64,000 nucleotides of DNA from Candidatus Rokuibacteriota bacterium (GCA_003221515.1 QHSI01000104.1:32568-96567); one strand, 5' to 3'. Positions 28,466-44,287 are shown, numbered from the stretch's first letter. Notes: generated by a model from the sequence alone, not told the origin. Translations and numbers: made by a program.

Positions 28466-28500
28466 TTGACAGTCCTGGAGGGCTTGGCTAGACTCGGGCC
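28466..28500 (+). promoter_or_regulatory. sigma70-like promoter TTGACA-17 bp-TAGACT upstream of the first acyl-CoA ligase / ABC cassette
   Basis: Perfect -35 hexamer with 17-bp spacer and 4/6 -10 in a 70% GC background; followed by GGAGG RBS (28544) and TTG 28553. Confidence 0.4.
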
Positions 28501-28552
28501 GCTCGACCCTGCCCTCCTCACGTGGCAGCACTCGGAGCATCGCGGAGGCGAT

Positions 28553-30526
28553 TTGAACGCACCGGCGCGGCGCAGCGACGCTCACGGGCTCGACGACGGG
28601 CTCGACACCTTTCCCAAGCTCGTCCGGCTCAACGCCCGCCGCCGTCCCGACAAGATCGCGATCCGAGAGAAGGACCTGGGGATCTGGCAGTCGTACACGT
28701 GGTCCGCGTACTTCGAGCAGGCCCGCCTCATCGCGCAGGGCCTCGCCTCGCTCGGGTTCGCGCGCGGCGACCGGGTCGCCATCATCGGCGACAACCGACC
28801 GCAGCTCTACTGGGCGGTCATGGCGACCCAGGCTCTGGGCGGCGTCCCGGTACCCATCTACCAGGACTCCATCGAGAAGGAGGTCGAGTTCGTCATCGAT
28901 CACGCCGAGGCCCGGTTCGCCGTCGTCGAGGACCAGGAGCAGGTCGACAAGCTCCTCAACGTGAAGGCGCGATGTCCGCGCCTTCAGCACGTCGTCTACG
29001 ACGATCCACGCGGGATGCGCCGCTACGGCGATCCGTGCCTGATGAGCCTCGCCGAGCTGCAGGAGCTCGGGAAGAAGTTCGAGGCCGGCCATCCGAATCA
29101 CTTCGACGACGAGATGGCCCGAGGCGGCGCGGACGACGTCGCCATCATCTGCTACACCTCGGGGACGACCGGCACGCCGAAGGGCGCGATGCTGTCCCAT
29201 CGGAACTTGATCGTGACCGCGCGCAACGCGGCGCGCTTCGAGGGTCTCGGAGCGGACGAGGAGATCCTCTCGTACCTGCCGATGGCCTGGGTCGGCGACC
29301 ACATCTTCTCGTACGCGCAGGCCATCATCACCGGGTTCGCCATCAACTGCCCGGAGAGCGCGGCGACCGTCCTGCACGACCTCAAGGAGATCGCCCCGAC
29401 CTATTTCTTCGGCCCGCCGCGCATCTGGGAGAGCATCCTCACCAGTGTCATGGTCCGCGTCGAGGACGCGCTATGGGTCAAGCGCGCGACGGTGCAGCTG
29501 TTCCTGCGCCTCGCGCAGGACATCGAGCGCCGGCGGCTCGGCCGGCAGCCGGTCGCGCTCTGGCAGCGTCTGCTCTATCCGCTGGGGAACCTCCTCGTGT
29601 ACGGCCCGCTCAAGGACAACCTCGGCCTTCGACGCGTGCGCCGGGCCTACACCGCCGGCGAGGCGATCGGCCCCGAGATCTTTCTCTTCTTCCGCGGGCT
29701 GGGGGTCAACGTCAAGCAGCTCTACGGCATGACCGAGGCCAGCGTGTTCGTCACGATCCAGCGCGACGGCGACGTCCGCCTCGACACCGTCGGGACCCCG
29801 ATCACCGACGTGGAGATCCGACTCTCGGAGCAGGGCGAGGTGCTCTTCAGGAGCCCGGGAGTCTTTCTCGGGTACGCCAAGAATCCCGAGGCCACGCGCG
29901 AGACCCTCGAGGACGGCTGGATCCATTCCGGGGACGCCGGCTTCCTCGGCCAGGACGGACACCTGAAGATCATCGACCGGGCCCGGGACGTGGGCCGCCT
30001 GGCCGACGGCACGCTGTTCGCGCCGAAGTTTCTCGAGAACAAGCTCAAGTTTTCCCCCTACGTCCGGGAGGCCGTGTGCGTCGGCCAGACGCGGCCCTGG
30101 GTGACCGCGCTCGTCAACATCGATCTGGCGGCGGTCGGGAACTGGGCGGAGCGCCGGAACATCGCCTACACGAGCTACACCGACCTGGCCCAGAAGCCGG
30201 AAGTCTACGAGCTGATCCAGCGTGAAGTGGAGCGGGTGAACCGGAGCCTCGCCGAGGACCAGGCGCTGCGAGGAGCCCAGGTCAGGCGCTTCCTGATCCT
30301 TCACAAGGAGCTGGATCCGGACGACGAGGAGATCACACGGACGCGGAAGATCCGGCGCGGGTACATCGGGCAAAAATACGCGCCGCTCATCGAAGCCCTC
30401 TACTCCGACCGGGACCACGTCCCGGTCGAGGCGAAGGTGACGTACGAGGACGGGCGCGCCGGCACGATGCGCGCGGACGTGAAGATCCGTGACGCGTCGG
30501 TCTTCGCCGTGCCGGAGGCGCGGTGA
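28553..30526 (+). CDS. AMP-dependent acyl-CoA synthetase/ligase (long-chain-fatty-acid--CoA ligase-like, transporter-associated type)
   Basis: ~657 aa from proposed TTG start (ORF track extends to 28445 without a credible start); AMP-binding motif 'ICYTSGTTGTPKGAML', 'YGMTE', 'GWIHSGDAGF'. Confidence 0.85.
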   Translation: MNAPARRSDAHGLDDGLDTFPKLVRLNARRRPDKIAIREKDLGIWQSYTWSAYFEQARLIAQGLASLGFARGDRVAIIGDNRPQLYWAVMATQALGGVPVPIYQDSIEKEVEFVIDHAEARFAVVEDQEQVDKLLNVKARCPRLQHVVYDDPRGMRRYGDPCLMSLAELQELGKKFEAGHPNHFDDEMARGGADDVAIICYTSGTTGTPKGAMLSHRNLIVTARNAARFEGLGADEEILSYLPMAWVGDHIFSYAQAIITGFAINCPESAATVLHDLKEIAPTYFFGPPRIWESILTSVMVRVEDALWVKRATVQLFLRLAQDIERRRLGRQPVALWQRLLYPLGNLLVYGPLKDNLGLRRVRRAYTAGEAIGPEIFLFFRGLGVNVKQLYGMTEASVFVTIQRDGDVRLDTVGTPITDVEIRLSEQGEVLFRSPGVFLGYAKNPEATRETLEDGWIHSGDAGFLGQDGHLKIIDRARDVGRLADGTLFAPKFLENKLKFSPYVREAVCVGQTRPWVTALVNIDLAAVGNWAERRNIAYTSYTDLAQKPEVYELIQREVERVNRSLAEDQALRGAQVRRFLILHKELDPDDEEITRTRKIRRGYIGQKYAPLIEALYSDRDHVPVEAKVTYEDGRAGTMRADVKIRDASVFAVPEAR

Positions 30527-31311
30527 GCCAGCCCGCGCCGGCGCGGCCGCTGCTCGAGGTCGACGGCGTCAGCGTGCGGTTCGGCGCCCTCGTCGCGGTC
30601 AACCGGGTGAGCCTGGCGATCGCTCCGGGGGAAATTCTGGCGATCATCGGGCCCAACGGCGCCGGCAAGACGACGCTGCTCAACGCCATCAGCGGGTTCT
30701 ACCATCCGTACGAGGGACGGATCGCGTTCGACTCCACCGACCGAACGATGCTGAGTCCCCCGGATGTCGCCGCGCTCGGCATCGCCCGGACCTTCCAGAA
30801 CGTCGCCCTCTTCAAGGGCATGACCGTGCTCGACAACATCATGACCGGTCGCCTGCTGAAGATGCGGGGGAACTTCCTGCTGGAAGCGCTCTACTGGGGC
30901 CCAGCCCGGCGCCAGGAGCTGGAGCATCGCGCCTTCGTGGAGCGCATCATCGACTTTCTCGAGATCCAGGCGATCCGCAAGACACCGGCGGGCCGGCTGC
31001 CGTACGGGCTGCAGAAACGGGTCGAGCTCGCCCGGGCGCTCGCCGCCGAGCCCAAGCTCCTGCTGCTCGACGAGCCGATGGCGGGGATGAACGTCGAGGA
31101 GAAGGAGGACATGTGCCGCTTCGTCCTCGACACCAACCAGGAGTTCGGCACGACCATCGCGCTGATCGAGCACGACATGGGCGTGGTCATGGACATCTCC
31201 GACCGGGTGGTGGTCCTCGACTACGGGCGCAAGATCGCTGACGGCGCGCCGGAGCACATCCGGAAGGACCAGGCGGTCCTCGACGCGTACCTGGGCGTGG
31301 CCCATGACTGA
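30523..31311 (+). CDS. LivG-type ABC ATP-binding protein (cassette 1)
   Basis: 'GPNGAGKTTLL', 'LPYGLQKRVELARALAAEPKLLLLDEPMAGM'. Confidence 0.85.
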   Translation: MSQPAPARPLLEVDGVSVRFGALVAVNRVSLAIAPGEILAIIGPNGAGKTTLLNAISGFYHPYEGRIAFDSTDRTMLSPPDVAALGIARTFQNVALFKGMTVLDNIMTGRLLKMRGNFLLEALYWGPARRQELEHRAFVERIIDFLEIQAIRKTPAGRLPYGLQKRVELARALAAEPKLLLLDEPMAGMNVEEKEDMCRFVLDTNQEFGTTIALIEHDMGVVMDISDRVVVLDYGRKIADGAPEHIRKDQAVLDAYLGVAHD

Positions 31312-32242
31312 CCTCCTCTACCTGGTGGCCGTCGCGCCCTTCACGGATATGGCCGGCTCGCCCGCCTTCCTGGTGGAGGTGCTGCTGGGCGGCGTCTTCG
31401 CCGGGTTGATGTACTCCCTGGTCGCGCTCGGCTTCGTGCTGATCTTCAAGGCCTCGGGCGTGTTCAACTTCGCCCAGGGCGTGATGGTGCTGTTCGCGGC
31501 CCTCACGCTCGTCGGGCTGCTCGAGCGGGGCGTGCCGGTGGTCGTGGCCCTCGCCCTGACCACCGCCGTCATGGTGGCGTTGGCGTTCGCGATCGAGCGG
31601 CTGGTGCTCCGGCCGCTCGTCAACCAGGAGCACATCATCCTGTTCATGGCGACGATCGGGTTGAACTTCTTCCTCGAGGGCTTCGGCGAGATGGTGTGGG
31701 GCGCCAACGTCAAGCGGCTCGACATCGGGATTCCGGACCGATCGTTCATCGTGCGGGGCGTCCAGATCAACCAGCTCGAGCTGACGGCGGCGCTGACGGC
31801 CGCCGTCCTCGTCACGGTGCTGGCGCTGTTCTTCCAGAAGACGCGGATCGGCCGAGCCTTACGCGCGGTGGCCGACGACCACGAGGCCGCGCTCTCCATC
31901 GGCATCCCGCTCAAGACGATCTGGGTGGTCGTGTGGTCGGTGGCGGGCGTCGTCGCGATCGTCGCCGGCGTGATGTGGGGCGCCAAGAGCGGCGTGCAGT
32001 TCAGCCTCTCGCTCATCGCGCTCAAGGCGCTGCCGGTGCTCATCCTCGGCGGGTTCGAGTCGGTGCCGGGCGCCATCGTCGGGGGCCTGATCATCGGCGT
32101 CGGCGAGAAGGTCGGCGAAGTCTACTGGGGCCCGCTCGTCGGCGGCGCCATCGAGAACTGGTTCGCGTACGTCCTCGCCCTGGCCTTCCTGCTGGCGAGG
32201 CCGCAAGGCCTCTTCGGCGAGAAGATCATCGAGCGCGTGTGA
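31304..32242 (+). CDS. LivH-type permease (cassette 1)
   Basis: 312 aa, multi-TM, 'MYSLVALGFVLIFKASGVFNFAQG'. Confidence 0.85.
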   Translation: MTDLLYLVAVAPFTDMAGSPAFLVEVLLGGVFAGLMYSLVALGFVLIFKASGVFNFAQGVMVLFAALTLVGLLERGVPVVVALALTTAVMVALAFAIERLVLRPLVNQEHIILFMATIGLNFFLEGFGEMVWGANVKRLDIGIPDRSFIVRGVQINQLELTAALTAAVLVTVLALFFQKTRIGRALRAVADDHEAALSIGIPLKTIWVVVWSVAGVVAIVAGVMWGAKSGVQFSLSLIALKALPVLILGGFESVPGAIVGGLIIGVGEKVGEVYWGPLVGGAIENWFAYVLALAFLLARPQGLFGEKIIERV

Positions 32243-32255
32243 CGGGCGTCGCACC

Positions 32256-33332
32256 GTGATCTATCGAGAGGCCGGTCAGTTCAAGACGAGCTACGCGAGC
32301 GACCAGGCCATCTTCCCGATCGCGCAAGATCGCGCCGTGGTGTTGCTGGCGCTCGCCGCGGCGTTCGTCGGGCCGCCGCTGCTGGCCAGCGAGTACTGGC
32401 TCCAGGCGATTCTCATTCCGCTCCTGATCTATTCGCTGGCCGCGATCGGCTTGAACCTCCTCACCGGCTACGCCGGGCAGCTCTCGCTCGGTACGGGCGG
32501 GTTCATGGCCGTCGGGGCCTACGCCGCGTTCAAGCTCACCACGGCGTTCCCTCAGGTCAGCATCGTTCTCGTCTTCCTGCTCTCGGGGCTCGTCGCGGCC
32601 GGCGTCGGGCTCGTCTTCGGCATCCCCTCGCTCCGTATCAAGGGCTTCTACCTCGCCGTGGCGACCCTCGCGTCGCAGTTCTTCCTCGTCTGGCTTTTCA
32701 ACAAGGTCGCGTGGTTCTCCAACTACGCCTCGTCCGGCACCATCACCGCCCCCGACCGCGCCGTGCTCGGCGTGACGGTCACCGGCCCCAGCGCCACCGC
32801 CTCCGCGCGCTACCTGACCGCGCTGGCGCTCGTCACCGTCTTCGCGCTGGTCGCGAAGAACCTGGTGCGCGGACGCGTCGGCCGGTCGTGGATGGCGATC
32901 CGCGACCGCGACATCGCCGCCGAGATCATCGGCGTGCGGCCGTTGCGGACGAAGCTGCTGGCCTTCGGGATCAGCTCGTTCTATTGCGGCGTGGCCGGCG
33001 CCGAGCTGGTGTTCCTCTACCTCGGCAGCGCCGAGACGCAGGCGTTCGACATCGGCCTCTCGTTCCTCATCCTGTTCATGGTGATCATCGGCGGGCGGGG
33101 CAGCATCCTGGGCTCCGTCCTCGGGGCGGTGTTCATCGTGCTGGTCCCGATCTTCCTGACGAACGCGCCGCACGCGCTCGGGCTGAGGCTGCCGGTCGCG
33201 CTCCAGAAGCAGATCGAGCTGATGGTCTTCGGCGGGCTCATCGTCTTCTTCCTGATCGTCGAGCCCCGCGGCCTCGCCCGGCTCTGGCAGATCACGAAGG
33301 AAAAGCTGCGACTCTGGCCCTTCCCCCACTAA
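32256..33332 (+). CDS. LivM-type permease (cassette 1)
   Basis: 358 aa; 'LTGYAGQLSLGTGGFMAVGAYAAF'. Confidence 0.85.
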   Translation: MIYREAGQFKTSYASDQAIFPIAQDRAVVLLALAAAFVGPPLLASEYWLQAILIPLLIYSLAAIGLNLLTGYAGQLSLGTGGFMAVGAYAAFKLTTAFPQVSIVLVFLLSGLVAAGVGLVFGIPSLRIKGFYLAVATLASQFFLVWLFNKVAWFSNYASSGTITAPDRAVLGVTVTGPSATASARYLTALALVTVFALVAKNLVRGRVGRSWMAIRDRDIAAEIIGVRPLRTKLLAFGISSFYCGVAGAELVFLYLGSAETQAFDIGLSFLILFMVIIGGRGSILGSVLGAVFIVLVPIFLTNAPHALGLRLPVALQKQIELMVFGGLIVFFLIVEPRGLARLWQITKEKLRLWPFPH

Positions 33333-33348
33333 CCCTGAGGAGACAACG

Positions 33349-34665
33349 ATGAACGCTCGGACCCTCTTGACCATGGCGCTGGCCGCCGCCGTCGCGGCCG
33401 GGCCCGCGGTGACGACCGCCCTGGCCGCGGGTGAAATGTTCGTGCCGCTCCTGGTCTATCGCACCGGACCGTACGCGCCGAACGGCATCCCGTTGGCCAA
33501 CGGCTTCAACGACTACTTCAACCTGATCAACGATCGGGACGGCGGCGTCAACGGCGTCCGGATCGCCTTCGAGGAGTGCGAGACCCAGTACGACACCAAG
33601 CAGGGCGTCGAGTGCTACGAGCGCCTCAAGGGGCGGAGCCCGGTGCTCGTCAATCCCTTCAGCACCGGCATCACCTATCAGCTGATTCCCAAGGCGCCGG
33701 GCGACAAGATCGTCGTTCACTCCTCGGGGTACGGCATGACGGCGTCCGCCGACGGGCGCTGGTTCCCCTGGGTCTTCAACTTCCCGATGACCTACTGGAG
33801 CCAGGCCTCGGCGTTCGTCAAGTACGTCGCCCAGCAGGAAGGCGGGACGGACAAGCTCAAGGGCAAGAAGATCGTCCACGTGTACCACAACAGCCCGTAC
33901 GGCAAGGAGGCGAACCCGACGCTCGAGACGCTGGCCCGCGATCTCGGGTTCGAGCTGACGCTGCTGGCGGTCGACCACCCTGGTCAGGAGCAGAAGGCGA
34001 CGTGGCTGCAGGTGCGCCGGCTCAATCCGGCGTGGATCTACGTGTCCGGCTGGGGCGTGATGAACCAGGTGGCGGTGAAGGAGGCAGCCGCGATCGGCTT
34101 CCCCATGGACCACGTGGTCGGCAACTGGTGGACGGGGACCGAGGCGGACGTGGTTCCGGCCGGCGAGGGCGCCAAGGGCTACAAGTCGATGACCTTCCAC
34201 GCCCCCGGCCACGGGTTCAAGGTGCATCAGGACATCTTCAAGCACGTCTACGACAAGGGGAAGGGCGCCGCGAAGCGGGAGGACGTCGGCGAGGTCCTCT
34301 ACAACCGCTCGATCATCAACGCGATGCTCGACACCGAGGCGATGCGCCTCGCGATGACGAGGTTCGGCAACAAACCGCTGACGGGTGAGCAGCTCCGCTG
34401 GGGCATGGAGAACCTCAACGTCACCGAGAAGCGCCTGGAGGAGCTGGGCATGAAGGGCATGCTGCGCCCCCTCCGGATGACCTGCGAGAACCACGAGGGC
34501 AACGGCACGGCGGCGGTGCAGCAGTGGGACGGCAAGAAGTGGACGATCATCTCGGACTGGATCGAGCCCATGCGCGACGTCGTCCGCCCGAAGCTCGAGG
34601 CCGCCGCGGTCGAGGAGGCCAAGAAGCTCGGCTACGTGATGCGCGACTGCGCCAAGGAGAAGTAG
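33349..34665 (+). CDS. ABC substrate-binding protein (type I fold, Liv-like family) of cassette 1
   Basis: 438 aa; signal 'MNARTLLTMALAAAVAAGPAVTTALAAG'. Confidence 0.85.
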   Translation: MNARTLLTMALAAAVAAGPAVTTALAAGEMFVPLLVYRTGPYAPNGIPLANGFNDYFNLINDRDGGVNGVRIAFEECETQYDTKQGVECYERLKGRSPVLVNPFSTGITYQLIPKAPGDKIVVHSSGYGMTASADGRWFPWVFNFPMTYWSQASAFVKYVAQQEGGTDKLKGKKIVHVYHNSPYGKEANPTLETLARDLGFELTLLAVDHPGQEQKATWLQVRRLNPAWIYVSGWGVMNQVAVKEAAAIGFPMDHVVGNWWTGTEADVVPAGEGAKGYKSMTFHAPGHGFKVHQDIFKHVYDKGKGAAKREDVGEVLYNRSIINAMLDTEAMRLAMTRFGNKPLTGEQLRWGMENLNVTEKRLEELGMKGMLRPLRMTCENHEGNGTAAVQQWDGKKWTIISDWIEPMRDVVRPKLEAAAVEEAKKLGYVMRDCAKEK

Positions 34666-34673
34666 CGCGCGCC

Positions 34674-35492
34674 GTGGCGAGCGACGCGACCCGGCCGCTT
34701 CTGTCGGTCAAGAACGTCGAGGTGATCTACGACCACGTGATCCTCGTGTTGAAGGGCGTGTCGCTCTCGGTCCCGGAGGGGGGCATCGTCGCCCTCCTCG
34801 GGGCCAACGGCGCGGGCAAGTCGACGACGCTGAAGGCCATCTCCGGCCTCCTGCGGACCGAGCGCGGCGAGGTGACGAAGGGGGTCATCGAGTTCCGGGG
34901 CGATCCGACGCTGCGCCGGGATCCGTCCGAGGTGGTGCGGCGCGGCATCGTCCAGGTGATGGAGGGGCGGCACGTCTTCGAGCACCTGACCGTCGAGGAA
35001 AATCTCCTCACCGGCGCCTACACCCGCCGGGATGGCCACGCCGCCCAGCGGGACCTCGATCTCGTCTACCGCTATTTTCCCCGGCTGGCCGAGCGCCGCG
35101 GCTTCGCGGCGGGCTACGTCTCCGGGGGCGAGCAGCAGATGGTCGCGATCGGCCGCGCGCTGATGGCCCGGCCCACCCTCATGCTCCTCGACGAGCCCTC
35201 CATGGGCCTGGCGCCAATGCTCGTGAAGGAGATCTTCGATATCGTCGCCCGCCTGAACCGGGAGGAGGGGCTCGCGGTGCTGCTCGCCGAGCAAAACGCG
35301 ACCATGGCATTGCGGGTTGCCCAATACGGCTATGTCATGGAAAATGGCCGGATCGTGCTCGACGGCGACGCCAGGACGATCAGCGAGAACGAGGACATCA
35401 AGGAGTTTTATCTGGGCCTGACCGGGGTTGGCCAGCGGAAGAGCTATCGGGACGTCAAGCACTATCGCCGGCGGAAGCGGTGGCTGTCGTGA
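34674..35492 (+). CDS. LivF-type ABC ATP-binding protein (cassette 1)
   Basis: GTG start; 'GANGAGKSTTL', 'VSGGEQQMVAIGRAL', C-terminal 'KSYRDVKHYRRRKRWLS' shared with cassette-2 LivF. Confidence 0.85.
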   Translation: MASDATRPLLSVKNVEVIYDHVILVLKGVSLSVPEGGIVALLGANGAGKSTTLKAISGLLRTERGEVTKGVIEFRGDPTLRRDPSEVVRRGIVQVMEGRHVFEHLTVEENLLTGAYTRRDGHAAQRDLDLVYRYFPRLAERRGFAAGYVSGGEQQMVAIGRALMARPTLMLLDEPSMGLAPMLVKEIFDIVARLNREEGLAVLLAEQNATMALRVAQYGYVMENGRIVLDGDARTISENEDIKEFYLGLTGVGQRKSYRDVKHYRRRKRWLS

Positions 35493-36286
35493 GCGGCCTC
35501 CTCGAGATCCGCGACGCGTCGAAGTCCTTCGGCGGCGTGCAGGCCGTGACCAGGGTGTCTCTCGAAGCCCAGAAGGGCGAGATCCTCTCGGTCATCGGTC
35601 CGAACGGTGCCGGCAAGACGACCGTGCTCAACATGATCAGCGGCTTCTATCACCCTGACAGCGGCCGGATCTCGCTCGAAGGACGCGACGTCACCGAGCT
35701 GGCGCCGAGCCGCATCGCCGAGCTCGGCGTTGCGCGCACCTTCCAGAACATCGCGCTGTTCAGGGGCATGACCGTCCTCGACAACTTGATGCTGGGGCGC
35801 CACGTGCACATGAAGACCGGCGTCTTGAGCGCCTGCGCCTACTGGGGCCTGGCGCAGAAGGAAGAGGTGGTCCACCGCCGACGGGTCGAGGACATCATCG
35901 ACTTCCTGCGCATCCAGGATCTGCGCCGCCGGCCGACGGGCTCGCTCCCCTACGGCCTGCAGAAGCGCGTCGAGCTGGGACGGGCGCTGGCGCTGGACCC
36001 GAAGGTGCTCCTCCTCGACGAGCCGATGGGCGGCTGCAACCACGAAGAGAAGGAAGACATGGCGCGCTTCATCCTCGACGTCAACGAGGAGTGGGGCGTC
36101 ACCGTGATCCTGATCGAGCACGACATGGGCGTGGTCATGGACATCTCGGACCGCGTGGCCGTGCTCGACATGGGGCAGAAGATCGCCGAGGGCACCCCCG
36201 ACGAGGTCCGCGCGAACCCGCGCGTGATCAAGGCCTACCTGGGCGAGACCAAGGCGGTGCCGAGCACTGGAGGGTCGCGTGTCTGA
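35480..36286 (+). CDS. LivG-type ABC ATP-binding protein (cassette 2)
   Basis: 'GPNGAGKTTVL', 'LPYGLQKRVELGRALALDPKVLLLDEPMGG'; alt start 35489. Confidence 0.85.
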   Translation: MAVVSGLLEIRDASKSFGGVQAVTRVSLEAQKGEILSVIGPNGAGKTTVLNMISGFYHPDSGRISLEGRDVTELAPSRIAELGVARTFQNIALFRGMTVLDNLMLGRHVHMKTGVLSACAYWGLAQKEEVVHRRRVEDIIDFLRIQDLRRRPTGSLPYGLQKRVELGRALALDPKVLLLDEPMGGCNHEEKEDMARFILDVNEEWGVTVILIEHDMGVVMDISDRVAVLDMGQKIAEGTPDEVRANPRVIKAYLGETKAVPSTGGSRV

Positions 36287-38198
36287 GGCGACGACGCTCG
36301 CGAGAATGCTGCGGCGGAACGCCCGCGATCTTCGTGACCGGCCGGCCATCCGGGAGAAGGACCGCGGCATCTGGCAGACCTGGACGTGGGGACAGTACTA
36401 CGAGCAGGTCCGCGATTTCGCGCTCGGGCTCGTCGCCCTCGGCTTCAAGCGGGGCGAGCGGCTGTCGGTGATCGGCGACAACCGCCCGCGGCTCTACTGG
36501 GCCCAGGTCGCCGCGCAGTGTCTCGGCGGGGTGCCCGTGCCCGTCTACCAGGACTCGATCGCCAAGGAGCTGGCGTTCGTCTGGAACCACGCGGAGTGCT
36601 CGGTGATCGTCGCCGAGGACCAGGAGCAGGTCGACAAGGTGCTGGGTCTCCGGGACCAGCTCCCGGCCTTACGTCTCGTCGTCTACGACGACCCCCGTGG
36701 TCTCGTGCACTACAAGCACGAGTGGTTGCGCTCCTACCAGGAGGTCCAGGAGCTCGGGCGCGCGTTCGCCGCCCGGCACCCCCACGACTTCGAGGCGGAG
36801 ATCGAGAAGGGGAAGCCGGAGGACGTCGCCATCATCTGTTACACCTCCGGCACCACCGGCAACCCGAAGGGCGTCATGCTGACCAACGCCAACGCGATCG
36901 GCATCGCCGACGCGTTCCGCAGGGCGGAAGACGTCCGCGCGGATGACGACGCCCTCGCGTACCTGCCGATGGCGTGGGCCGGAGACGCCGCCTACACGCT
37001 GTTCCTCAGCCTGGTCGTGGGCTTCTGCTCGAACTGCCCGGAGAGCCCGGAGACCGTCCAGCGCGACCTGCGCGAGCTGGGGCCGACGACGGTGCTGGCG
37101 CCACCGCGCATCTGGGAGAACATGCTGACCGGCGTGCAGGTGAAGGCCGCCGACGCCCCCGCCCTCAAGCGCTGGGTCTTCGAGCGCTTCCGCGCCGCCG
37201 CCGAGCGTGCGGAAATCCGACGTTCTGACGGCAAGCCGATCCCACTGGGGCTGCGTCTGGCGTGCATGCTGGGCAACGTCCTGGTCTACACGCCGATCCG
37301 CGATCAGCTCGGGCTGCGCCGCGCGCGGTGGGCGCTCACTGGCGGCGCCCCCCTCGGGCCGGACACCTTCCGCTTCTTCCGGTCGATCGGCGTCAACCTC
37401 AAGCAGGTCTACGGGTCGACCGAGACGACCGGCCTGGTGTCGCTGCAGCCGAGCGCCGAGGCCAACCCGACGACCGCCGGGCGCCCGTGCCCGGGCATCG
37501 AGGTGAAGATCGCCGACCGGGGCGAGGTGCTGGTCCGCGGTCCCGTCATCTTCAAGGGCTATCTCAAGAACGAGGAGGCGACGCGCGAGGTCATCGACCC
37601 CGAGGGCTGGTTCCGCACCGGCGACGCCGGCTTCATGGATCCGCGCGGCCACCTGGTCATCATCGATCGCGCGAAGGACGTGGGCGCCCTGCGGGACGGC
37701 ACGCCGTTCGCGCCGCAGTTCATCGAGAACAAGCTGAAGTTCAGTCCGTTCATCCGCGAGGCGGTCGCCTTCGGCAACGAGTACCCGTTCGTCAGCGCGA
37801 TGGTCGCCATCGACCTGAACACGGTCGGGAACTGGGCCGAGCGCCGGGGGATTCCCTATACGAGCTACATGGACCTGAGCCAGAAGCCGGAGGTGTGCGA
37901 CCTGATCCGCGAGGAAATCCGGAAAGGCAACGAGACCTTGCCGGCGTCCACGCGCATCCGCCGCTTCTTGCTCCTCACCAAGGACCTGGAGGCCGACGAC
38001 GCCGAGATGACGCGCACCCGCAAGGTGCGGCGGAAATTCGTTGCCGAGAAGTACGCTTCGGTGATCGATGCGTTCTACGCGGGCGGCCACGCGGTGGAGC
38101 TGGAAGCGAGCATCACCTACGAGGACGGCCGCACGGCCATCATGAAGTCGCACGTGCGCGTCGAGGACGTCGAGGCGGAGACCACGGCCCGTGTCTGA
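36279..38198 (+). CDS. AMP-dependent acyl-CoA synthetase/ligase (cassette 2 paralog)
   Basis: 639 aa; 'ICYTSGTTGNPKGVML', 'YGSTE', 'GWFRTGDAGF'; collinear with the 28553 ligase. Confidence 0.85.
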   Translation: MSEATTLARMLRRNARDLRDRPAIREKDRGIWQTWTWGQYYEQVRDFALGLVALGFKRGERLSVIGDNRPRLYWAQVAAQCLGGVPVPVYQDSIAKELAFVWNHAECSVIVAEDQEQVDKVLGLRDQLPALRLVVYDDPRGLVHYKHEWLRSYQEVQELGRAFAARHPHDFEAEIEKGKPEDVAIICYTSGTTGNPKGVMLTNANAIGIADAFRRAEDVRADDDALAYLPMAWAGDAAYTLFLSLVVGFCSNCPESPETVQRDLRELGPTTVLAPPRIWENMLTGVQVKAADAPALKRWVFERFRAAAERAEIRRSDGKPIPLGLRLACMLGNVLVYTPIRDQLGLRRARWALTGGAPLGPDTFRFFRSIGVNLKQVYGSTETTGLVSLQPSAEANPTTAGRPCPGIEVKIADRGEVLVRGPVIFKGYLKNEEATREVIDPEGWFRTGDAGFMDPRGHLVIIDRAKDVGALRDGTPFAPQFIENKLKFSPFIREAVAFGNEYPFVSAMVAIDLNTVGNWAERRGIPYTSYMDLSQKPEVCDLIREEIRKGNETLPASTRIRRFLLLTKDLEADDAEMTRTRKVRRKFVAEKYASVIDAFYAGGHAVELEASITYEDGRTAIMKSHVRVEDVEAETTARV

Positions 38199-39087
38199 CG
38201 ACCTGAGCTTCTTCTTCCTCCTGATGTCGAACGGCCTCCTGATCGGCCTGATGTACTCGCTGATCGCGCTGGGGTTCGTGCTGGTCTACAAGGCGACCGA
38301 CGCCATCAACTTCGCCCAGGGCGAGTTCGTGATGATCGCGGGCTTCGTGACGGCGGGGGCCCTCATGGTGTGGGGGGCGCCGCTCTGGGTCGCCGTCGCG
38401 CTGGCGCTGGTGAGCCTGGTCGCCTTCGGCTTCGTCCTCGAGCGCGTGATGCTGCGACGACTCATCGGGCGACCCGTGATCGCCGTGGTCATGGCGACCA
38501 TCGGGCTGGCGGCGATCCTGCGCGGCGTCGGGCCGTTCGTCATCTTCTCCGGGACCAAGCCGCTGCCGCTGCCCATTCGCGACGAGCCGTTCATGCTGGG
38601 GCCGATCTTCATCCCGCCCATCCAGCTGCTCGGGGCCGGGGTGAGCCTGGCCTTCCTGGCCGGCTTCGGCTGGTTCTTCCTGAAGTCTCGCAAGGGCATC
38701 GCCATGCGGGCGGTGGCCGACAACCAGCAAGTCGCCATGGCGATGGGCATCGACGTCGAGCGCTACTTCGGCGTGGCGTGGGCGATGACCGGCGTCGTGT
38801 CGGCCCTGGGCGGGATCCTGTGGGGTAACCTGCTCGGCGTCGACGTGAACCTGGCCCTCGTCGGCTTCAAGGTGTTTCCCGTCGTGATCCTGGGCGGGCT
38901 GGACTCGATTCCGGGCGCGATCATCGGCGGCCTCATCGTCGGCGTCGTCGAGAACATCGCGGCCGGCTACGTCGATCCCTACGTCGGCGGCGGCACCAAA
39001 GACTTCGCCCCCTACGTCCTGATGATTCTCGCCCTCATGATTCGCCCATATGGAATCTTCGGGAAGCGAATCATTGAGCGGGTCTAG
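38191..39087 (+). CDS. LivH-type permease (cassette 2)
   Basis: 298 aa. Confidence 0.85.
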   Translation: MSDDLSFFFLLMSNGLLIGLMYSLIALGFVLVYKATDAINFAQGEFVMIAGFVTAGALMVWGAPLWVAVALALVSLVAFGFVLERVMLRRLIGRPVIAVVMATIGLAAILRGVGPFVIFSGTKPLPLPIRDEPFMLGPIFIPPIQLLGAGVSLAFLAGFGWFFLKSRKGIAMRAVADNQQVAMAMGIDVERYFGVAWAMTGVVSALGGILWGNLLGVDVNLALVGFKVFPVVILGGLDSIPGAIIGGLIVGVVENIAAGYVDPYVGGGTKDFAPYVLMILALMIRPYGIFGKRIIERV

Positions 39088-39234
39088 GGCGACGATAACG
39101 GCGCATCTGCTTCGTTGCCTCGTCGCTGCCTCCCTGCGGCGTATGCGGCATACGCCTCAGTCGTCAGCTCCTCGGCGCCTCGCATCTGCACCGTTCTCGT
39201 CGCCCTGCCCGGCGCTCTTCAGAAAGGGGGCGCG

Positions 39235-40302
39235 TTGATTCATCGGGAATGCGGCGTTCTCAAGACGACGTACGAGGCGGATATGGGACTCTATCCGCTT
39301 CCGATTGCCAAGTGGACGGTGGCGGCGTTGGGCGTGCTGTTCGTCGTGGTGATCCCGCTCTCGCTGCACGAATATTACCTGTCGGTGGCGAATCTCGTCT
39401 GGATCGCCGTCATCGGCGCGCTCGGGCTCAACATCCTGGTGGGCTACACCGGGCAGGTGTCCATCGGTCACGGCGCCTTCATGTCGGTGGGCGCCTACAC
39501 CGCGGCGAATCTCGCGAACCGCCTGGGCTCGCCCTGGCCGGTCAATTTGTTGGCCGGCGGACTGATGGCGGCGCTCATCGGCGCGATCGTCGGGATCCCG
39601 TCGCTTCGCATCAAGGGGCTCTACCTGGCCATCGCCACGCTGGCCGGCCAGCTCATCATCGAGTGGACCATCAACCACGTGACGTTCATCAGCGGTGGCG
39701 TGCAAGCCTCGATCGAGGTCGCGCGCCCGCGTCTGGGCCCGATGGTCCTCAGCAGCCAGCGGGACATGTACTACTTCCTGCTGGTGTTCGTCGTCCTGGG
39801 CATCGCGGGCACCATGAATCTCATGCGGACCCGAGTCGGGCGCGCCTTCATCGCCATCCGCGACCATGACATCGCCGCCGAGATCATCGGCATCAACATC
39901 TTCCGCTACAAGCTGCTGGCGTTCGCGATCTCGTCGTTCTACGCCGGGGTCACCGGCGTGCTGTACACGTACTTCCTCGGCATCGCCAACTACGAGCAGT
40001 TCCAGATCGGGGTGTCGATCGACTACCTGGCCATGATCATCATCGGCGGCCTCGGCTCGGTGCTGGGCTCGATCTTCGGCGCCATCTTCGTCACCCTGCT
40101 GCCCATCGTCATCCGCTACGCCATGGAGGCCTTCGGCGGGATCTTCTTCGCGCCGCAAACCGTGCTCAACCTGATTCCCAATCTCCGCCTCATGCTGTTC
40201 GGCGCCCTCATCATCTTTTTCCTGATCGTCGAGCCCGAGGGACTGAACCGGCTCTGGCGGAACATCCGCAGCTACTTTCGGGTCTGGCCATTCGCGTACT
40301 GA
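39235..40302 (+). CDS. LivM-type permease (cassette 2)
   Basis: Proposed TTG start with RBS AAAGGGGG (ORF-track Met at 39115 lies in a non-conserved leader); 'LVGYTGQVSIGHGAFMSVGAYTAANLA'. Confidence 0.8.
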   Translation: MIHRECGVLKTTYEADMGLYPLPIAKWTVAALGVLFVVVIPLSLHEYYLSVANLVWIAVIGALGLNILVGYTGQVSIGHGAFMSVGAYTAANLANRLGSPWPVNLLAGGLMAALIGAIVGIPSLRIKGLYLAIATLAGQLIIEWTINHVTFISGGVQASIEVARPRLGPMVLSSQRDMYYFLLVFVVLGIAGTMNLMRTRVGRAFIAIRDHDIAAEIIGINIFRYKLLAFAISSFYAGVTGVLYTYFLGIANYEQFQIGVSIDYLAMIIIGGLGSVLGSIFGAIFVTLLPIVIRYAMEAFGGIFFAPQTVLNLIPNLRLMLFGALIIFFLIVEPEGLNRLWRNIRSYFRVWPFAY

Positions 40303-40327
40303 CGTACGCGAGGGAAGGAGAGCATTC

Positions 40328-41581
40328 ATGAAACAGTTCCTGGCGATCGCAACGGCGCTGGTGCTGGCAGCAGGCAGCCTGCTGACGGCCGCGCCGTCTC
40401 ACGCGCAAGCAAAGGGCGACGTCGTCATCGGCCTGCAGTGCGACCGCACCGGCCCCACGCAGATCGTGGGCACGGTCCTCTGCCCCGGCTTCCACGACTA
40501 CATCGCCCTCATCAATTCCAAGGGCGGCGTCGAGGGCCGCCAGATCAAGGCCCTCGAGATCGACCATGAGTACAAGGTGCCGCCGGGCATCGAAGCCTAC
40601 GAGCGCCACAAGAAGGAAGGCGCGGTCACGATGGCGGTGTACGGCACGCCGCACATCTACGCGATGGCCGCGAAGCTGACGGAAGACCGGATCCCCGGGA
40701 CCTCGCCGGGCTTCGGCAGCGCCGCCGCCGCCGATGGCATCCGGTACCCGTACATCTTCCCGATCGCCGCCACGTACTGGTCGCAGGGCGCCGCGGCGGT
40801 GGACTTCGTCAAGAAGCAGCTCGGCGGCAGCCTGAAGGGCAAGAAGATCGCGTTCATCTTCTACGACAACCCGGCCGGCCGGGAGCCGATCGAGGTGCTC
40901 GAGGATCTCTCGGCTCTGGAAGGCTTCCAGCTCAAGACCTTCGCGGTGCCGCCGCCCGGCGTCGAGATGGGCGCCCAGGTGCTCGACATCGCTCAGCGCT
41001 ATCGCGCGGACTTCGTGATCGGGCACCTGTTCGGCGGCGCGCCGTCGGTGTCGATCAAGGAGTTCAAGCGGGTCGGCTATCCGCTGCGCAAGTTCGTCTC
41101 GTTCGTGTGGGGCGCCGGGGAGGCCAACATCGAGGGCGCCGGCGGCTTCGCGGTGGCCGAAGGGTACTACGTGATGCAGTTCGCCGGCGTGGGTACCGAC
41201 TACCCGGTGCTCAACGAGATCCGCGAGATGTACAAGAAGCAGGGCAAGCCGGCGCCGAAGGAAATGGCGTCGACCGTGTTCTACAACCGAGGCGTGCTGA
41301 TCGCCGCGCTGCACGTCGAGGCGATCCGCAACGCCTTGAAGGCCAAGCCCGACGGCAAGATCACGGGCGAGGACACCAAGAAGGGTTTTGAGAAGATCTC
41401 GAACTTCACGCTCGGCGGGCTGGTGCCGCCGCTCAAGGTGACGCCGACCGACCACGAGGGTGGTGGGCTCGTTCAGATCTGGCAGGTCAAGGGCGGGAAG
41501 TTCGAGAAGGTCACCGACTGGTTCGCGGCGTACCAGGACGTCGTCGCCAAGCACATCAAGGAGGCTGGCGCTAAGAAGTAA
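40328..41581 (+). CDS. ABC substrate-binding protein (type I fold, Liv-like) of cassette 2
   Basis: 417 aa; signal 'MKQFLAIATALVLAAGSLLTAAPSHAQA'. Confidence 0.85.
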   Translation: MKQFLAIATALVLAAGSLLTAAPSHAQAKGDVVIGLQCDRTGPTQIVGTVLCPGFHDYIALINSKGGVEGRQIKALEIDHEYKVPPGIEAYERHKKEGAVTMAVYGTPHIYAMAAKLTEDRIPGTSPGFGSAAAADGIRYPYIFPIAATYWSQGAAAVDFVKKQLGGSLKGKKIAFIFYDNPAGREPIEVLEDLSALEGFQLKTFAVPPPGVEMGAQVLDIAQRYRADFVIGHLFGGAPSVSIKEFKRVGYPLRKFVSFVWGAGEANIEGAGGFAVAEGYYVMQFAGVGTDYPVLNEIREMYKKQGKPAPKEMASTVFYNRGVLIAALHVEAIRNALKAKPDGKITGEDTKKGFEKISNFTLGGLVPPLKVTPTDHEGGGLVQIWQVKGGKFEKVTDWFAAYQDVVAKHIKEAGAKK

Positions 41582-41604
41582 CCCGCGCGGGGCCGGCGCC
41601 CGCT

Positions 41605-41749
41605 GACGGGGCCGGCGCCGTGGGGGTGGGACGGACCTGGAAATCCGCGAGCCGCTGTGCTCGACGACATTGTCGATCGCGGCAGCCTTCGGCAACGGTG
41701 CCTACACGGATTTCCAGGACCGTCCCACCCCCACGGCGCCGGCCCCGTC
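41605..41749. mobile_element. 145-bp element with 43-bp near-perfect inverted-repeat arms (GACGGGGCCGGCGCCGTGGGGGTGGGACGGACCTGGAAATCCG ... CGGATTTCCAGGACCGTCCCACCCCCACGGCGCCGGCCCCGTC) around a 59-nt loop; MITE-like or large RNA hairpin between SBP and livF of cassette 2
   Basis: Arms 41605-41647 and 41707-41749 are reverse complements with a single mismatch. Confidence 0.5.
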
Positions 41750-41863
41750 CGTGGGAGGTCGGCGAGCCCGGCGGTTGCTCCTCGCAAGACCGTTACTGCT
41801 GGTCGTCGAAACGGGCGGCTCGTCGAACCGATGCAAGCGCTTCTCGAAGAGGTGGCGTAGGCA

Positions 41864-42658
41864 ATGCTGGGTTTGAATAATGTCGAGGTGATTTATGACG
41901 GGGTGATCCTCGTGCTCAAGGGCGTGTCGTTGAACGTCCGTGACGGTGGGATCACCACGCTGCTCGGGGCCAACGGGGCGGGGAAGACGACGACGCTCAA
42001 GGCGGTGTCGGGGCTGCTGCGCTCCGAGCGCGGCGACGTCACGAAAGGTTCGATCGAGTTCAGCGGGGAGCGGATCGATCGTTTGCCGCCGCACGCGGTC
42101 GTCCGGCGCGGCATCGTGCAGGTGTTCGAGGGCCGACGCGTCTTCGAGCACCTGACCACCGAGGAGAATCTGATCGCCGGCGCGCACATCCAGAAGGACC
42201 GGCAGCGCGTGGCCGGAGGAATCGAGCGCGTCTACGAATACTTCCCGCGGCTCAAGGAGCGGCGCTCCGTGCAGTCCGGGTACCTGTCGGGCGGGGAGCA
42301 GCAGATGCTCGTGATCGGGCGAGCGCTGATGGCGAACCCGCACGTCATGCTCCTCGACGAGCCCTCGCTCGGCCTGGCGCCGATGCTGGTCGAGGAGATC
42401 TTCGGCATCGTCCAGCAGCTGAACCGGCAGGAGAAGCTGACCGTCCTGCTGGTCGAGCAGAACGCCGCGCTGGCGTTGACCATCGCCGAGCACGGCTACG
42501 TGATGGAGAACGGACGGATCGTGCTCGACGGCAGCGCGGATGCGCTCCGGGAGAACCCCGACATCAAGGAGTTCTATCTCGGGCTGACCGAGGTCGGCGC
42601 CCGCCGATCGTACCGGGACGTCAAGCACTACAAGCGCCGGAAACGCTGGCTCTCCTAG
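41864..42658 (+). CDS. LivF-type ABC ATP-binding protein (cassette 2)
   Basis: 264 aa; 'GANGAGKTTTL', 'LSGGEQQMLVIGRAL'. Confidence 0.85.
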   Translation: MLGLNNVEVIYDGVILVLKGVSLNVRDGGITTLLGANGAGKTTTLKAVSGLLRSERGDVTKGSIEFSGERIDRLPPHAVVRRGIVQVFEGRRVFEHLTTEENLIAGAHIQKDRQRVAGGIERVYEYFPRLKERRSVQSGYLSGGEQQMLVIGRALMANPHVMLLDEPSLGLAPMLVEEIFGIVQQLNRQEKLTVLLVEQNAALALTIAEHGYVMENGRIVLDGSADALRENPDIKEFYLGLTEVGARRSYRDVKHYKRRKRWLS

Positions 42659-42673: not shown

Positions 42674-43126
42674 ATGGGACGCACTCGTGCGATCGGACTG
42701 GGACTCGTGCTGCTCATCGGGGCGTTGAACCTCGTCGCGTGCGCGACGACGGCGGATCAGGGGCCGTCGCTCTACAAGCGCCTGAACGGGCGCGAGGGCA
42801 TCGCGCTCGTCGTCGGCGACTTCGTCGCCAACATGGCCGGCGACGCCCGCGTCAACGAGCGCTTCAAGGCCATGAAGCCGGCGGATATCGAGAAGCTCAA
42901 GTCGTATCTGTCCGACCAGATCTGTGACGCGACCGGCGGGCCCTGTTCGTACGTGGGCCGCGACATGAAGACCACGCACAAGGGCATGCAGATCAGCGAC
43001 GCCGAGTGGAACGCGACCGTCGAGAACCTGGTCAAGGCCCTGGACAAGAACAAGGTCGCCGCCAAGGAGAAGAGCGAGCTGCTGGGCGTGCTCGGACCGA
43101 TGAAGGCGGACATCGTCGGTCAGTGA
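42674..43126 (+). CDS. Truncated (2/2) haemoglobin, group I-like, lipoprotein (lipobox LVAC)
   Basis: 150 aa; 'SLYKRLNGREGIALVVGDFVANM..D.RVNERF' and 'THKGMQISDAEWNATVENLVKAL' match trHb helices B-E and G-H; signal ends 'LNLVAC'. Confidence 0.7.
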   Translation: MGRTRAIGLGLVLLIGALNLVACATTADQGPSLYKRLNGREGIALVVGDFVANMAGDARVNERFKAMKPADIEKLKSYLSDQICDATGGPCSYVGRDMKTTHKGMQISDAEWNATVENLVKALDKNKVAAKEKSELLGVLGPMKADIVGQ

Positions 43127-44280: not shown

Positions 44281-44287
44281 TCCGGGC

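Follow-up and report, generated by a model that had tools for sequence, protein, structure and literature searches.

Two diverged cassettes of an AMP-forming ligase and a Liv-type ABC importer in a Candidatus Rokuibacteriota genome: a putative operon for import and CoA-trapping of organic acids

The coupling of fatty or organic acid uptake to immediate thioesterification, called vectorial acylation, is known for FadL/FadD of E. coli, for the mce1 locus of M. tuberculosis with fadD5 and for the peroxisomal ABCD transporters with acyl-CoA synthetases. The transporters of these systems are an outer-membrane channel, an Mce complex and ABCD half-transporters, and to our knowledge none of them uses a Liv-type binding-protein-dependent importer. 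In R. palustris, COG0683 binding proteins annotated as 'Liv' bind fatty, dicarboxylic and aromatic acids, not Leu/Ile/Val, and some of their genes adjoin CoA-ligase genes: transporter genes with the binding proteins RPA3723-3725 adjoin pimFABCDE, and the binding protein RPA1789 is encoded beside the p-coumarate-CoA ligase RPA1787 (PMC3223731). Family-4 ABC systems of Cupriavidus likewise adjoin aromatic catabolic genes (PMC2842291).

The locus described here lies in a 64-kb stretch (64,000 nucleotides, hereafter the window) of a Candidatus Rokuibacteriota soil MAG. It resembles the organic-acid systems of R. palustris by its 'Liv'-annotated COG0683 binding proteins with a CoA ligase encoded nearby, and the vectorial acylation systems by a ligase gene that lies within the transporter locus or next to it (as in mce1-fadD5) and by its predicted function, FadD5 being a remote match of our first ligase, lig1 (E 1e-24). 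Unlike those of the Rokuibacteriota cassettes, the nearby ligases of R. palustris belong to other ANL subfamilies and stand outside any fixed-order transporter operon; we know of no LivF in the R. palustris systems that bears the C-terminal tail described below. The six genes of our cassette 1 are found in identical order, with 53-78% identity, in operons such as those of Xanthobacter autotrophicus Py2 (Xaut_5039-5034) and Roseovarius sp. THAF8 (FIU85_RS21210-21180). Such unnamed operons, with a ligase followed by LivG-H-M-SBP-LivF, occur in Proteobacteria and other phyla and have the LivF tail and a ligase C-terminal extension in common with cassette 1, whereas the Rokuibacteriota locus adds a second, diverged and order-permuted copy. 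In the searchable literature we came upon no characterised operon of precisely this family. We propose, with a probability of roughly 70%, that positions 28466-42658 form one operon encoding two anciently diverged ligase and Liv-type importer systems, which would take up organic acids and retain these in the cell as CoA thioesters.

Layout of the locus

Twelve co-directional, mostly overlapping ORFs on the + strand (28553-42658) form two cassettes, each encoding an ACSL/FadD-like AMP-forming ligase (L), LivG, LivH, LivM, a Peripla_BP_6 binding protein (SBP, or S) and LivF. Their order is L-G-H-M-S-F in cassette 1 and G-L-H-M-S-F in cassette 2, with L and G swapped. This anatomy and both gene orders had been given in a preliminary description, and every ORF was recovered at the coordinates given there, with agreeing domains. 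The features are as follows.

28466..28494, + strand: sigma-70-like promoter TTGACA-N17-TAGACT, 5' of lig1 (consensus match)
28553..30526, + strand: lig1, ACSL/FadD-like AMP-forming ligase, 657 aa (AMP-binding 1.8e-71, AMP-binding_C_3)
30523..31311, + strand: livG1, ABC ATPase (ABC_tran and BCA_ABC_TP_C; top NCBIfam match LivG)
31304..32242, + strand: livH1, permease (BPD_transp_2 1.6e-30)
32256..33332, + strand: livM1, permease (BPD_transp_2 1.3e-36)
33349..34665, + strand: SBP1, periplasmic binding protein with signal peptide (Peripla_BP_6 8.5e-45; PDB 4RU0 E 1e-121)
34674..35492, + strand: livF1, ABC ATPase with basic C-terminal tail (top NCBIfam match LivF; 272-aa gene call)
35480..36286, + strand: livG2, ABC ATPase (top NCBIfam match LivG, 270.8 bits; 63% identity to G1)
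36279..38198, + strand: lig2, ACSL/FadD-like AMP-forming ligase, 639 aa (AMP-binding 7.6e-73; 52% identity to lig1)
38191..39087, + strand: livH2, permease (BPD_transp_2 1.3e-30; 42% identity to H1)
39235..40302, + strand: livM2, permease (BPD_transp_2 4.4e-43)
40328..41581, + strand: SBP2, periplasmic binding protein with signal peptide (Peripla_BP_6 4e-43; 33% identity to SBP1)
41599..41755, + strand: long hairpin in the SBP2-livF2 spacer (49-nt arms, 94% complementary)
41864..42658, + strand: livF2, ABC ATPase with basic C-terminal tail (top NCBIfam match LivF, 234 bits; 70% identity to F1)
42674..43126, + strand: globin-like lipoprotein (Bac_globin 2.4e-11; N-terminal lipobox ...LVAC)
43123..44280, + strand: acyl-CoA dehydrogenase (three Acyl-CoA_dh domains; 4-nt overlap with the globin gene)

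Consecutive genes overlap or are separated by at most 25 nt, except at two spacers. The overlaps, of 4 nt for livG1 and lig1, of 8 nt for livH1 and livG1, and of the livG2 start with the end of livF1, are as expected for translational coupling. The lig1 start codon is the TTG at 28553, with a GGAGG at 28544-28548 on its 5' side, and metagenome gene calls concur (657 aa). The start of livF1 was refined to 34674 and that of livM2 is probably the TTG at 39235, by homology to the M1 N-terminus, gene callers placing it at 39283. The signal peptides of both binding proteins were read off the sequence.

The promoter-like site, already put forward in the preliminary description, is the sole sigma-70-like match in 27800-43300, where 1.0 is expected by chance. 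Both hexamers are kept in five related Rokuibacteriota/Methylomirabilia loci (L007, L008, L009, L011 and L012) with a spacer that varies in sequence, and a conserved CGTAAGTCCnnGTCAT motif stands immediately 5' of the site, at about 28436-28452. The complete 282-nt spacer between SBP2 and livF2 has a folding energy of -191 kcal/mol (z -9.5); its hairpin is also present in near-identical strains and has no match in Rfam, and it may serve to stabilise or process the mRNA, or represent a small insertion with inverted repeats. Downstream of livF2, the gene of the globin-like lipoprotein starts after 15 nt and is followed by that of the acyl-CoA dehydrogenase, for which NCBIfam ranks the models of acryloyl-CoA reductase and cyclohexane-1-carbonyl-CoA dehydrogenase highest, none of them reaching its cut-off. 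The operon probably extends through both genes, to about 44280.

The ligases, the importers and their relatives across phyla

Both ligases carry the AMP-binding (PF00501, E 1.8e-71 and 7.6e-73) and AMP-binding_C_3 domains. The ANL motifs YTSGTTGxPKG, YGxTE, GDAG, IIDRxKD and TRTRKxRR are at least 80-95% conserved among 87 ligase relatives, and the adenylation motifs are intact together with the A10 lysine, which places the enzymes in the ACSL/FadD-like part of the ANL superfamily. Orthology to a characterised enzyme was not found, every NCBIfam equivalog (FadD11, FadD, AliA, PaaK and others) scoring below its cut-off; the top match, FadD11, reached 308 bits for lig1 and 357 bits for lig2 against a cut-off of 950. 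The PDB holds no close ligase structure (best E 2e-29). Beyond the A10 lysine motif, a C-terminal extension of about 45 aa that includes an EDGR motif is conserved in the 87 relatives. The acyl acceptor is presumed to be CoA.

The transporters have the components of the HAAT (Liv-type, TC 3.A.1.4) family, namely LivG- and LivF-type ATPases, two BPD_transp_2 permeases (E 1e-30 to 4e-43 for H1, M1, H2 and M2) and a secreted Peripla_BP_6/COG0683 binding protein. The ATPases match the NCBIfam models LivG with 256 and 271 bits and LivF with 217 and 234 bits, both G carrying ABC_tran together with BCA_ABC_TP_C and both F carrying ABC_tran; since these scores lie below the equivalog cut-offs, the proteins are considered family members, not LivG/F orthologues.

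The binding proteins stand further apart. No NCBIfam family was matched by SBP1 at E <= 0.001 or by SBP2 at E <= 1e-10, and in profile searches the ligase-linked binding proteins form a subfamily of their own. Against the PDB, the profile of this family retrieved 4RU0 (8e-169), 3LKB (3e-29) and 4N03 (4e-15), then the solved aromatic-acid binders 3SG0, 4EVQ and 4DQD (4e-8 to 7e-6), with LivK (2LBP and 1USG, 2e-5 and 9e-5) among the most remote matches. A close relationship to LivJ/K or to an amino-acid-binding equivalog, which according to the preliminary description would have spoken against organic acids, was thus found neither in NCBIfam nor with the PDB profile. The nearest solved structure, 4RU0 (SBP1 E 1e-121, SBP2 E 5e-51), is a putative branched-chain amino-acid ABC binding protein of the same fold family, for which the literature search returned no citing paper; it is nearer to the ligase-less Rhizobium type of sfn clusters (498 bits) than to SBP1 (410 bits). 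Beyond the family, the nearest binding-protein relatives (47% identity) belong to ligase-less transporters in the sfn sulfur-acquisition clusters on Rhizobium plasmids; no plasmid-borne homologue exceeds 35% identity to SBP2. With such relatives, and with 4RU0 nearer to their type than to SBP1, the fold in itself is no pointer to carboxylates.

The adjacency of ligase and importer, reported in the preliminary description, is no local accident, its order being kept across phyla with overlapping genes. A genome scan gave 596 stretches encoding a ligase relative, and the 74 best loci outside Rokuibacteriota were inspected for gene order: 50 show the full L-G-H-M-S-F order and 18 more are compatible with it, broken by a contig end. 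These loci belong to Alpha-, Beta- and Gammaproteobacteria, Myxococcota, SAR324, Tectimicrobiota and Acidobacteriota. With its identical order, cassette 1 is orthologous to this cross-phylum operon, and cassette 2 has the G/ligase swap; among the loci compared, the tandem pair was seen only in Rokuibacteriota/Methylomirabilia. A PaaK-like ligase is present in 47 other loci and a Crp/Fnr regulator in 24, both usual in Proteobacteria and not universal, whereas neither had a tblastn match in the 64-kb window. Because most of the orthologous proteobacterial operons add these two genes, the role of the large ligase may be more complicated than that of an activating enzyme.

The LivF tail and the role of the ligase

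In the system that we propose, a hydrophobic carboxylic acid would be caught in the periplasm by the binding protein and imported by the ABC core at the expense of ATP, after which the dedicated cytoplasmic ligase would adenylate it and convert it into a CoA thioester, trapping it in the cell. The thioester would then pass to acyl-CoA dehydrogenase and crotonase-type catabolism. The sequences show which genes are present and in what order, their paralogy, the cross-phylum linkage of ligase and importer, the intact motifs of the ligases and the remoteness of the binding proteins from LivJ/K; carboxylate import, CoA as the acceptor, the identity of the substrates and a physical contact between ligase and transporter are what we infer.

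A rival and less likely reading is that the ligase docks on the transporter or regulates it, beyond being co-expressed with it, with the LivF tail and the ligase extension touching each other, or the tail sensing acyl-CoA; import and thioesterification would then be coupled mechanically or allosterically, which would amount to vectorial acylation proper by an ABC importer. The LivF C-termini are QRKSYRDVKHYRRRKRWLS in F1 and ARRSYRDVKHYKRRKRWLS in F2, with the basic tails KSYRDVKHYRRRKRWLS and RRSYRDVKHYKRRKRWLS, so that the common C-terminus noticed earlier is indeed present in both copies. This polybasic tail ends in ..YRRRKRWL (consensus ..F/Y-R-D-x-K-H/F-Y-R/K-R-R-K-R-W-L) and is nearly invariant across phyla despite the variable loop before it. 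It was found in all LivF of ligase-linked cassettes that were examined (59/59) and is missing from every LivG, from the ligase-less Rhizobium homologue (SBP 47% identical) and from six LivF that belong to HAAT systems without a ligase, encoded in this window and in the loci compared; the tail-less set is small and phylogenetically further off. Its confinement to ligase-linked LivF hints at a physical or regulatory coupling, and the conserved ligase extension and the overlap of ligase and ATPase genes are in agreement with it. This support is nevertheless a correlation: the tail might mark a clade and have nothing to do with the ligase, and the long relatives checked include no ligase-ABC fusion. 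Slightly less likely still is that the ligase serves the importer as a genuine accessory subunit, or as a partner that senses the product, with the invariant polybasic tail recruiting it or reading it out.

Age of the two cassettes and nature of the substrate

All six components are paralogous, as the preliminary description stated, with identities between cassettes of 52% for the ligase, 63% for G, 42% for H, 44% for M, 33% for S and 70% for F (all E <= 1e-69). Its term 'tandemly duplicated' holds for the adjacency of paralogous copies, but the duplication in place that it implies is not in agreement with the trees. In neighbour-joining (NJ) bootstraps, a sister relation of cassette 2 to the Rokuibacteriota cassette 1 by itself was recovered in 0/40 replicates for each of L, G, H and M, 5/40 for S and 7/40 for F, the modal placement of cassette 2 being outside all cassette-1-type sequences, with the reservation that long-branch attraction to the outgroup is possible in such trees from Kimura distances. 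Proteobacterial orthologues are also nearer to cassette 1 (ligase 53-62%, H 53-78%, S mostly 44-60%) than cassette 2 is (52, 42 and 33%). A recent duplication in place, with rapid divergence afterwards and a local exchange of L and G, would account for two adjacent, co-oriented cassettes with all components in common and the LivF tail kept in both, for a tandem layout seen only in Rokuibacteriota/Methylomirabilia and for the failure to find a closer relative of lig2 or SBP2 elsewhere; we consider it unlikely, given these trees and the similar divergence rates of both cassettes within the phylum (L007 excepted). The outside position of cassette 2 and these rates indicate ancient paralogues.

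The divergence pattern, lowest in identity for S and highest for G and F with the ligase between (52%), fits a changed ligand specificity on a conserved motor. An expansion of the substrate range, in agreement with 33% identity for S, 42-44% for H and M and 63-70% for G and F, is from these sequences a reasonable inference, and the two cassettes probably serve different acids. The fatty, alicyclic or aromatic acids named in the preliminary description are candidate substrates.

Genes of acyl-CoA metabolism surround the operon: besides the acyl-CoA dehydrogenase directly downstream, the window encodes a MenB/BadI-like crotonase immediately upstream and, elsewhere, ETF, an acyl-CoA mutase, one more acyl-CoA dehydrogenase and another crotonase. 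The orthologous loci are surrounded by acyl-CoA mutases, HADH/ECH, acyl-CoA dehydrogenase, CoA-transferase and PaaK-like ligase genes. This setting, with its beta-oxidation genes, argues against an acyl-ACP synthetase or fatty-acid salvage enzyme feeding free fatty acids to membrane lipids instead of catabolism. The ligases do belong to the ACSL-like branch (NCBIfam FadD11 and long-chain ligases, AMP-binding_C_3 C-domain), where cyanobacterial Aas enzymes take ACP as their acceptor and function in the uptake and recycling of fatty acids; even so, we hold such a role to be quite improbable. Ordinary importers of branched-chain amino acids, or of other amino acids or amides, beside unrelated ligase genes are most improbable of all, for although E. 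coli Liv subunits are the top NCBIfam models for G, H, M and F and the permeases are annotated accordingly in public records, these matches are far under the equivalog cut-offs, the binding proteins have neither an NCBIfam match at the thresholds above nor closeness to LivK, and the ligase linkage is kept in order and coupling across phyla.

The find is a fairly ordinary one, a gene set widespread across phyla of which two old paralogous copies here stand in one operon. Rokuibacteriota are abundant uncultured soil bacteria, and the locus informs on which carbon sources they scavenge; identification of the substrate would also put right a mis-annotation that is widespread. Should the LivF tail indeed link transporter and ligase, it would be a new way to join ABC import with metabolic trapping. 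If the ligase is an accessory subunit or a product-sensing partner, this operon family would be the first in which vectorial acylation is built into a binding-protein-dependent ABC importer, and Rokuibacteriota would express two such machines, with different receptors, from one operon.

Gene organisation and transcription of the two cassettes

ORF listing and translation placed twelve same-strand genes within 28553-42658, in a window of about 70% G+C. Matches in Pfam and NCBIfam identified two ligases with AMP-binding and AMP-binding_C_3 domains (lig1, 657 aa; lig2, 639 aa), two LivG-like ATPases, each with the BCA_ABC_TP_C motif, two LivF-like ATPases and four BPD_transp_2 permeases, two of them LivH-like and two LivM-like. 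Two Peripla_BP_6 binding proteins (SBP), both with signal peptides, complete the set. With L, G, H, M, S and F standing for ligase, LivG, LivH, LivM, binding protein and LivF, the ORFs and the domain matches bear out the order claimed in the preliminary description, L-G-H-M-S-F (cassette 1, 28553-35492) followed by G-L-H-M-S-F (cassette 2, 35480-42658); the observation of the cassettes as a whole, namely twelve genes, order, domains and paralogy, is thus confirmed. The identity between the paralogues is 52% for the ligase, 63% for G, 42% for H, 44% for M, 33% for S and 70% for F. The G+C content is lowest in the window at 38001-42000, the distal half of cassette 2 (0.654-0.655, elsewhere mostly 0.67-0.73), which may reflect either membrane-protein composition or a separate history of this cassette. 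Identical proteins and contigs were found in soil metagenomes.

Between adjacent genes there is either an overlap of 4-13 nt or a gap of at most 25 nt, except for two spacers, H2-M2 (about 147 nt, assuming that M2 starts at TTG 39235) and S2-F2 (282 nt). The latter contains an inverted repeat at 41599-41755, with 49-nt arms that are 94% complementary and a 59-nt loop region; the predicted fold of the whole spacer reaches -191 kcal/mol (z -9.5). The repeat occurs once in the window and recurs in near-identical strains with 1-3 SNPs. As a hairpin 3' of the binding-protein gene it may stabilise the mRNA or serve in its processing, or it may be a small insertion of an inverted repeat. An Rfam search of 27800-43200, including this hairpin, gave no match, and terminator-like matches around the operon were not above chance. 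A globin-like gene starts 15 nt 3' of livF2 and is overlapped by 4 nt by an acyl-CoA dehydrogenase gene; since both are closely packed after livF2, the transcription unit probably runs on into them.

Upstream of lig1, the TTGACA-N17-TAGACT site proposed earlier as a promoter is present at 28466-28494, 5' of the GGAGG-TTG start. Although the count of sigma-70-like sites, 1 in 15.5 kb, equals the chance expectation, the -35 and -10 hexamers are kept in five related MAG loci in which the spacer sequence differs. The motif CGTAAGTCCnnGTCAT (28436-28452), located about 15-30 nt 5' of the -35 hexamer, is also kept in five related Rokuibacteriota/Methylomirabilia loci and may be an operator for some regulator. 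This pattern of conservation supports a real promoter with a possible operator. Short ORFs at 28233-28410, between the MenB/BadI-like crotonase gene and the promoter (MVMAYIIFVNPVILGF... / ...AFVVYFCLPLIETALK*), look to us like what is left of the two termini of a purine permease of NCS2/AzgA type; a Pfam search of these putative remnants gave no match.

Spread of the operon and age of cassette 2

In a genome scan using one genome per species and ligase-derived patterns, at least 596 stretches coding for a ligase relative were found, and the six protein types were mapped onto the best 80 loci. Among these best 80 of at least 596, the closest are Rokuibacteriota and Methylomirabilia MAGs. The other 74 loci, from Alpha-, Beta- and Gammaproteobacteria, Myxococcota, SAR324, Tectimicrobiota and Acidobacteriota, comprise 50 with a complete L-G-H-M-S-F order, 18 that fit it up to the point where a contig end truncates them and 6 variants. 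The recurrence of this order across phyla makes cassette 1 an orthologue of a very widespread operon. The tandem arrangement L-G-H-M-S-F-G-L-H-M was seen in only six loci among the same best 80, all from Rokuibacteriota/Methylomirabilia. In Proteobacteria a small, uncharacterised PaaK-like ligase is nearly always encoded next to the operon, in 47 loci (L018-L086, e.g., L022:12057-13451; L088:2326-3576; L089:11185-12405), directly 3' of it or, in Xanthobacter, before it; it scores about 162 bits against PaaK models whose cut-offs are 646-700. A divergent gene for a Crp/Fnr-family regulator is present in 24 loci, often 5' of the operon. Neither gene was found anywhere in the 64-kb window. The proteobacterial operon presents a puzzle of its own, with one transporter and two different adenylating enzymes.

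The preliminary interpretation was largely reasonable, though the substrate it gave is putative, and it erred where it implied a recent duplication. Cassette 1 is nearer to its proteobacterial orthologues (ligase 53-62%, H 53-78%, S mostly 44-60% identity) than to cassette 2 (52, 42 and 33%, respectively). In neighbour-joining bootstrap trees on subsampled taxa (40 replicates), rooted with other HAAT (Liv-type binding-protein-dependent ABC importer) and ligase paralogues of the same loci, no replicate for L, G, H or M paired cassette 2 as sister with just the Rokuibacteriota cassette 1 (0/40 each), whereas 5/40 did so for S and 7/40 for F. The modal position of cassette 2 was outside every cassette-1-type sequence, and several trees joined it to the second, divergent cassette of L007, a Rokuibacteriota/Methylomirabilia locus, which had been classed among the outgroups. 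The within-phylum divergence rates of both cassettes are similar, L007 excepted. The search for lig2 homologues returned near-identical Rokuibacteriota sequences only. No closer relatives of lig2 or SBP2 were found in a library of 50%-identity representatives (best full-length match about 49% identical) or among plasmids (at most 35% identity), and no free-standing G-L-H-M-S-F cassette appeared in the lig2 homologue and 50%-representative searches. Taken together, the identities, tree placements and similar rates lead us to conclude that the cassettes are old side-by-side paralogues rather than a recent duplication in place, the distance trees being open to long-branch error.

Putative substrate and acyl-CoA context

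In both ligases every core motif of the ANL superfamily is retained, among them the P-loop-like YTSGTTGxPKG and TRTRKxRR with the A10 lysine; beyond the latter, some 45 residues form a conserved extension in which EDGR is nearly invariant. They belong to the ACSL/FadD-like branch: their top matches, all far under cut-off, are FadD11 and long-chain ligases, and they have no close match among solved structures. A ligase-ABC gene fusion was considered for two unusually long relatives (P0174, P0240) and rejected, as both hold ligase domains alone.

Because a binding protein is present, the direction of transport should be inward. NCBIfam gave no match for S1 at E <= 0.001 and none for S2 at E <= 1e-10. 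A profile built from 31 members of the binding-protein family and searched against the PDB matched 4RU0 (8e-169), 3LKB (3e-29) and 4N03 (4e-15), then several organic-acid binders of R. palustris and Pseudomonas (about 1e-7), and LivK at just 2e-5 to 9e-5; judged by these profile scores, SBP1 and SBP2 are unlike LivJ/K. In thermal-shift work, many 'Liv' binding proteins of COG0683 had fatty, dicarboxylic or aromatic acids as their ligands instead of branched-chain amino acids (PMC3223731), and genes for such transporters adjoin CoA-ligase and beta-oxidation genes (PMC3223731; PMC2842291). Homologous G-H-M-S-F transporters without a ligase occur on Rhizobium plasmids (SBP 47% identical to SBP1), and about 188 plasmid records, mainly from Rhizobium and Agrobacterium, carry SBP homologues. 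One of them, on R. leguminosarum pRlvC (L087:4128-12437), lies between msuE/sfnG and an sfnB-family gene, a sulfur-acquisition context that suggests import of organosulfur compounds. Since 4RU0 also fits this ligase-less type better than SBP1 (498 vs 410 bits), similarity of the binding protein is by itself insufficient to assign a carboxylate ligand.

The genomic setting of the cassettes is acyl-CoA metabolism. The acyl-CoA dehydrogenase gene is immediately 3' of them and the MenB/BadI-like crotonase gene immediately 5', the latter closing a third complete HAAT-type system (21009-27827) that also precedes the cassettes in the related loci L007-L009. A class IV aminotransferase, ETF, an acyl-CoA mutase large subunit, a second acyl-CoA dehydrogenase (ACAD), a further crotonase and a further AMP-binding enzyme are encoded elsewhere in the window. 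Many acyl-CoA and transport genes were observed at 1-21000 and 44000-62000.

Genes surrounding the cassettes

Outer window
454-1188, LivF-like gene
4133-5125, ETF alpha
6128-7900, acyl-CoA mutase large subunit
7913-9040, class IV aminotransferase
9800-11023, ACAD
about 11080, LivG-like gene
12367-17185, Opp-type ABC system
48787-50661, minus strand, distant AMP-binding ligase
51530-53650, aldehyde dehydrogenase

Third HAAT block
21009-21827, crotonase
about 21845, LivG-like
about 22587-23282, LivF-like, without basic tail
23233-24555, Peripla_BP_6 binding protein (E 3e-108)
25186-27029, UrtB/LivH-like and LivM-like permeases
27045-27827, MenB/BadI-like crotonase (MenB 381.6 bits, cut-off 380; BadI 367, cut-off 468)

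3' of livF2
42674-43126, plus strand, globin-like lipoprotein (Bac_globin E 2.4e-11; lipoprotein-type signal ..LVAC)

Near the orthologous operons, HADH/ECH, ACAD, CaiB-type CoA-transferase and PaaK-like ligase genes were found; an acyl-CoA mutase with MeaB adjoins the operon in Xanthobacter Py2 and Roseovarius, and a fused IcmF-type acyl-CoA mutase lies around it in nine loci. The globin-like gene, situated between livF2 and the acyl-CoA dehydrogenase gene and translationally coupled to the latter, is an oddity, an exported truncated-globin-like lipoprotein within an acyl-CoA operon; in Xanthobacter Py2 a globin gene (Xaut_5029) also lies near the orthologous operon.

The binding protein, the ligase branch, the SBP relationships, the published precedents and the acyl-CoA context together make the best-supported prediction one in which carboxylic acids that are hydrophobic and may be branched or alicyclic would be imported and activated at once to CoA thioesters by the ligase of the operon. 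Because the receptor and permeases diverged most and the ATPases least, the two cassettes probably differ in ligand range.

The C-terminus of LivF

The distinctive LivF C-terminus pointed out earlier holds, and is not confined to this genome: the basic tail ..(K/R)(S/N)(F/Y)(R/K)(D/E/N)xK(H/F)Y(R/K)RRKRWL(A/S/T) ends 59/59 LivF proteins of ligase-linked cassettes. It was found in none of six LivF proteins of ligase-less HAAT systems from the same window and loci, in no LivG protein, and not in the LivF of the ligase-less Rhizobium homologue (L087); no occurrence of the peptide was found in the searchable literature. The co-occurrence of tail and ligase, a correlation whose negative set is small and phylogenetically skewed, suggests that the tail may serve in docking of the ligase or in sensing of its acyl-CoA product.

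No study of this ligase-linked operon family was found in published full text, and the family of cassette 1 is widespread and apparently uncharacterised. The locus is a doubled form of a type of system already known, a predicted HAAT organic-acid importer linked to a CoA ligase, and its chief point of interest is the association of the LivF tail with the ligase.
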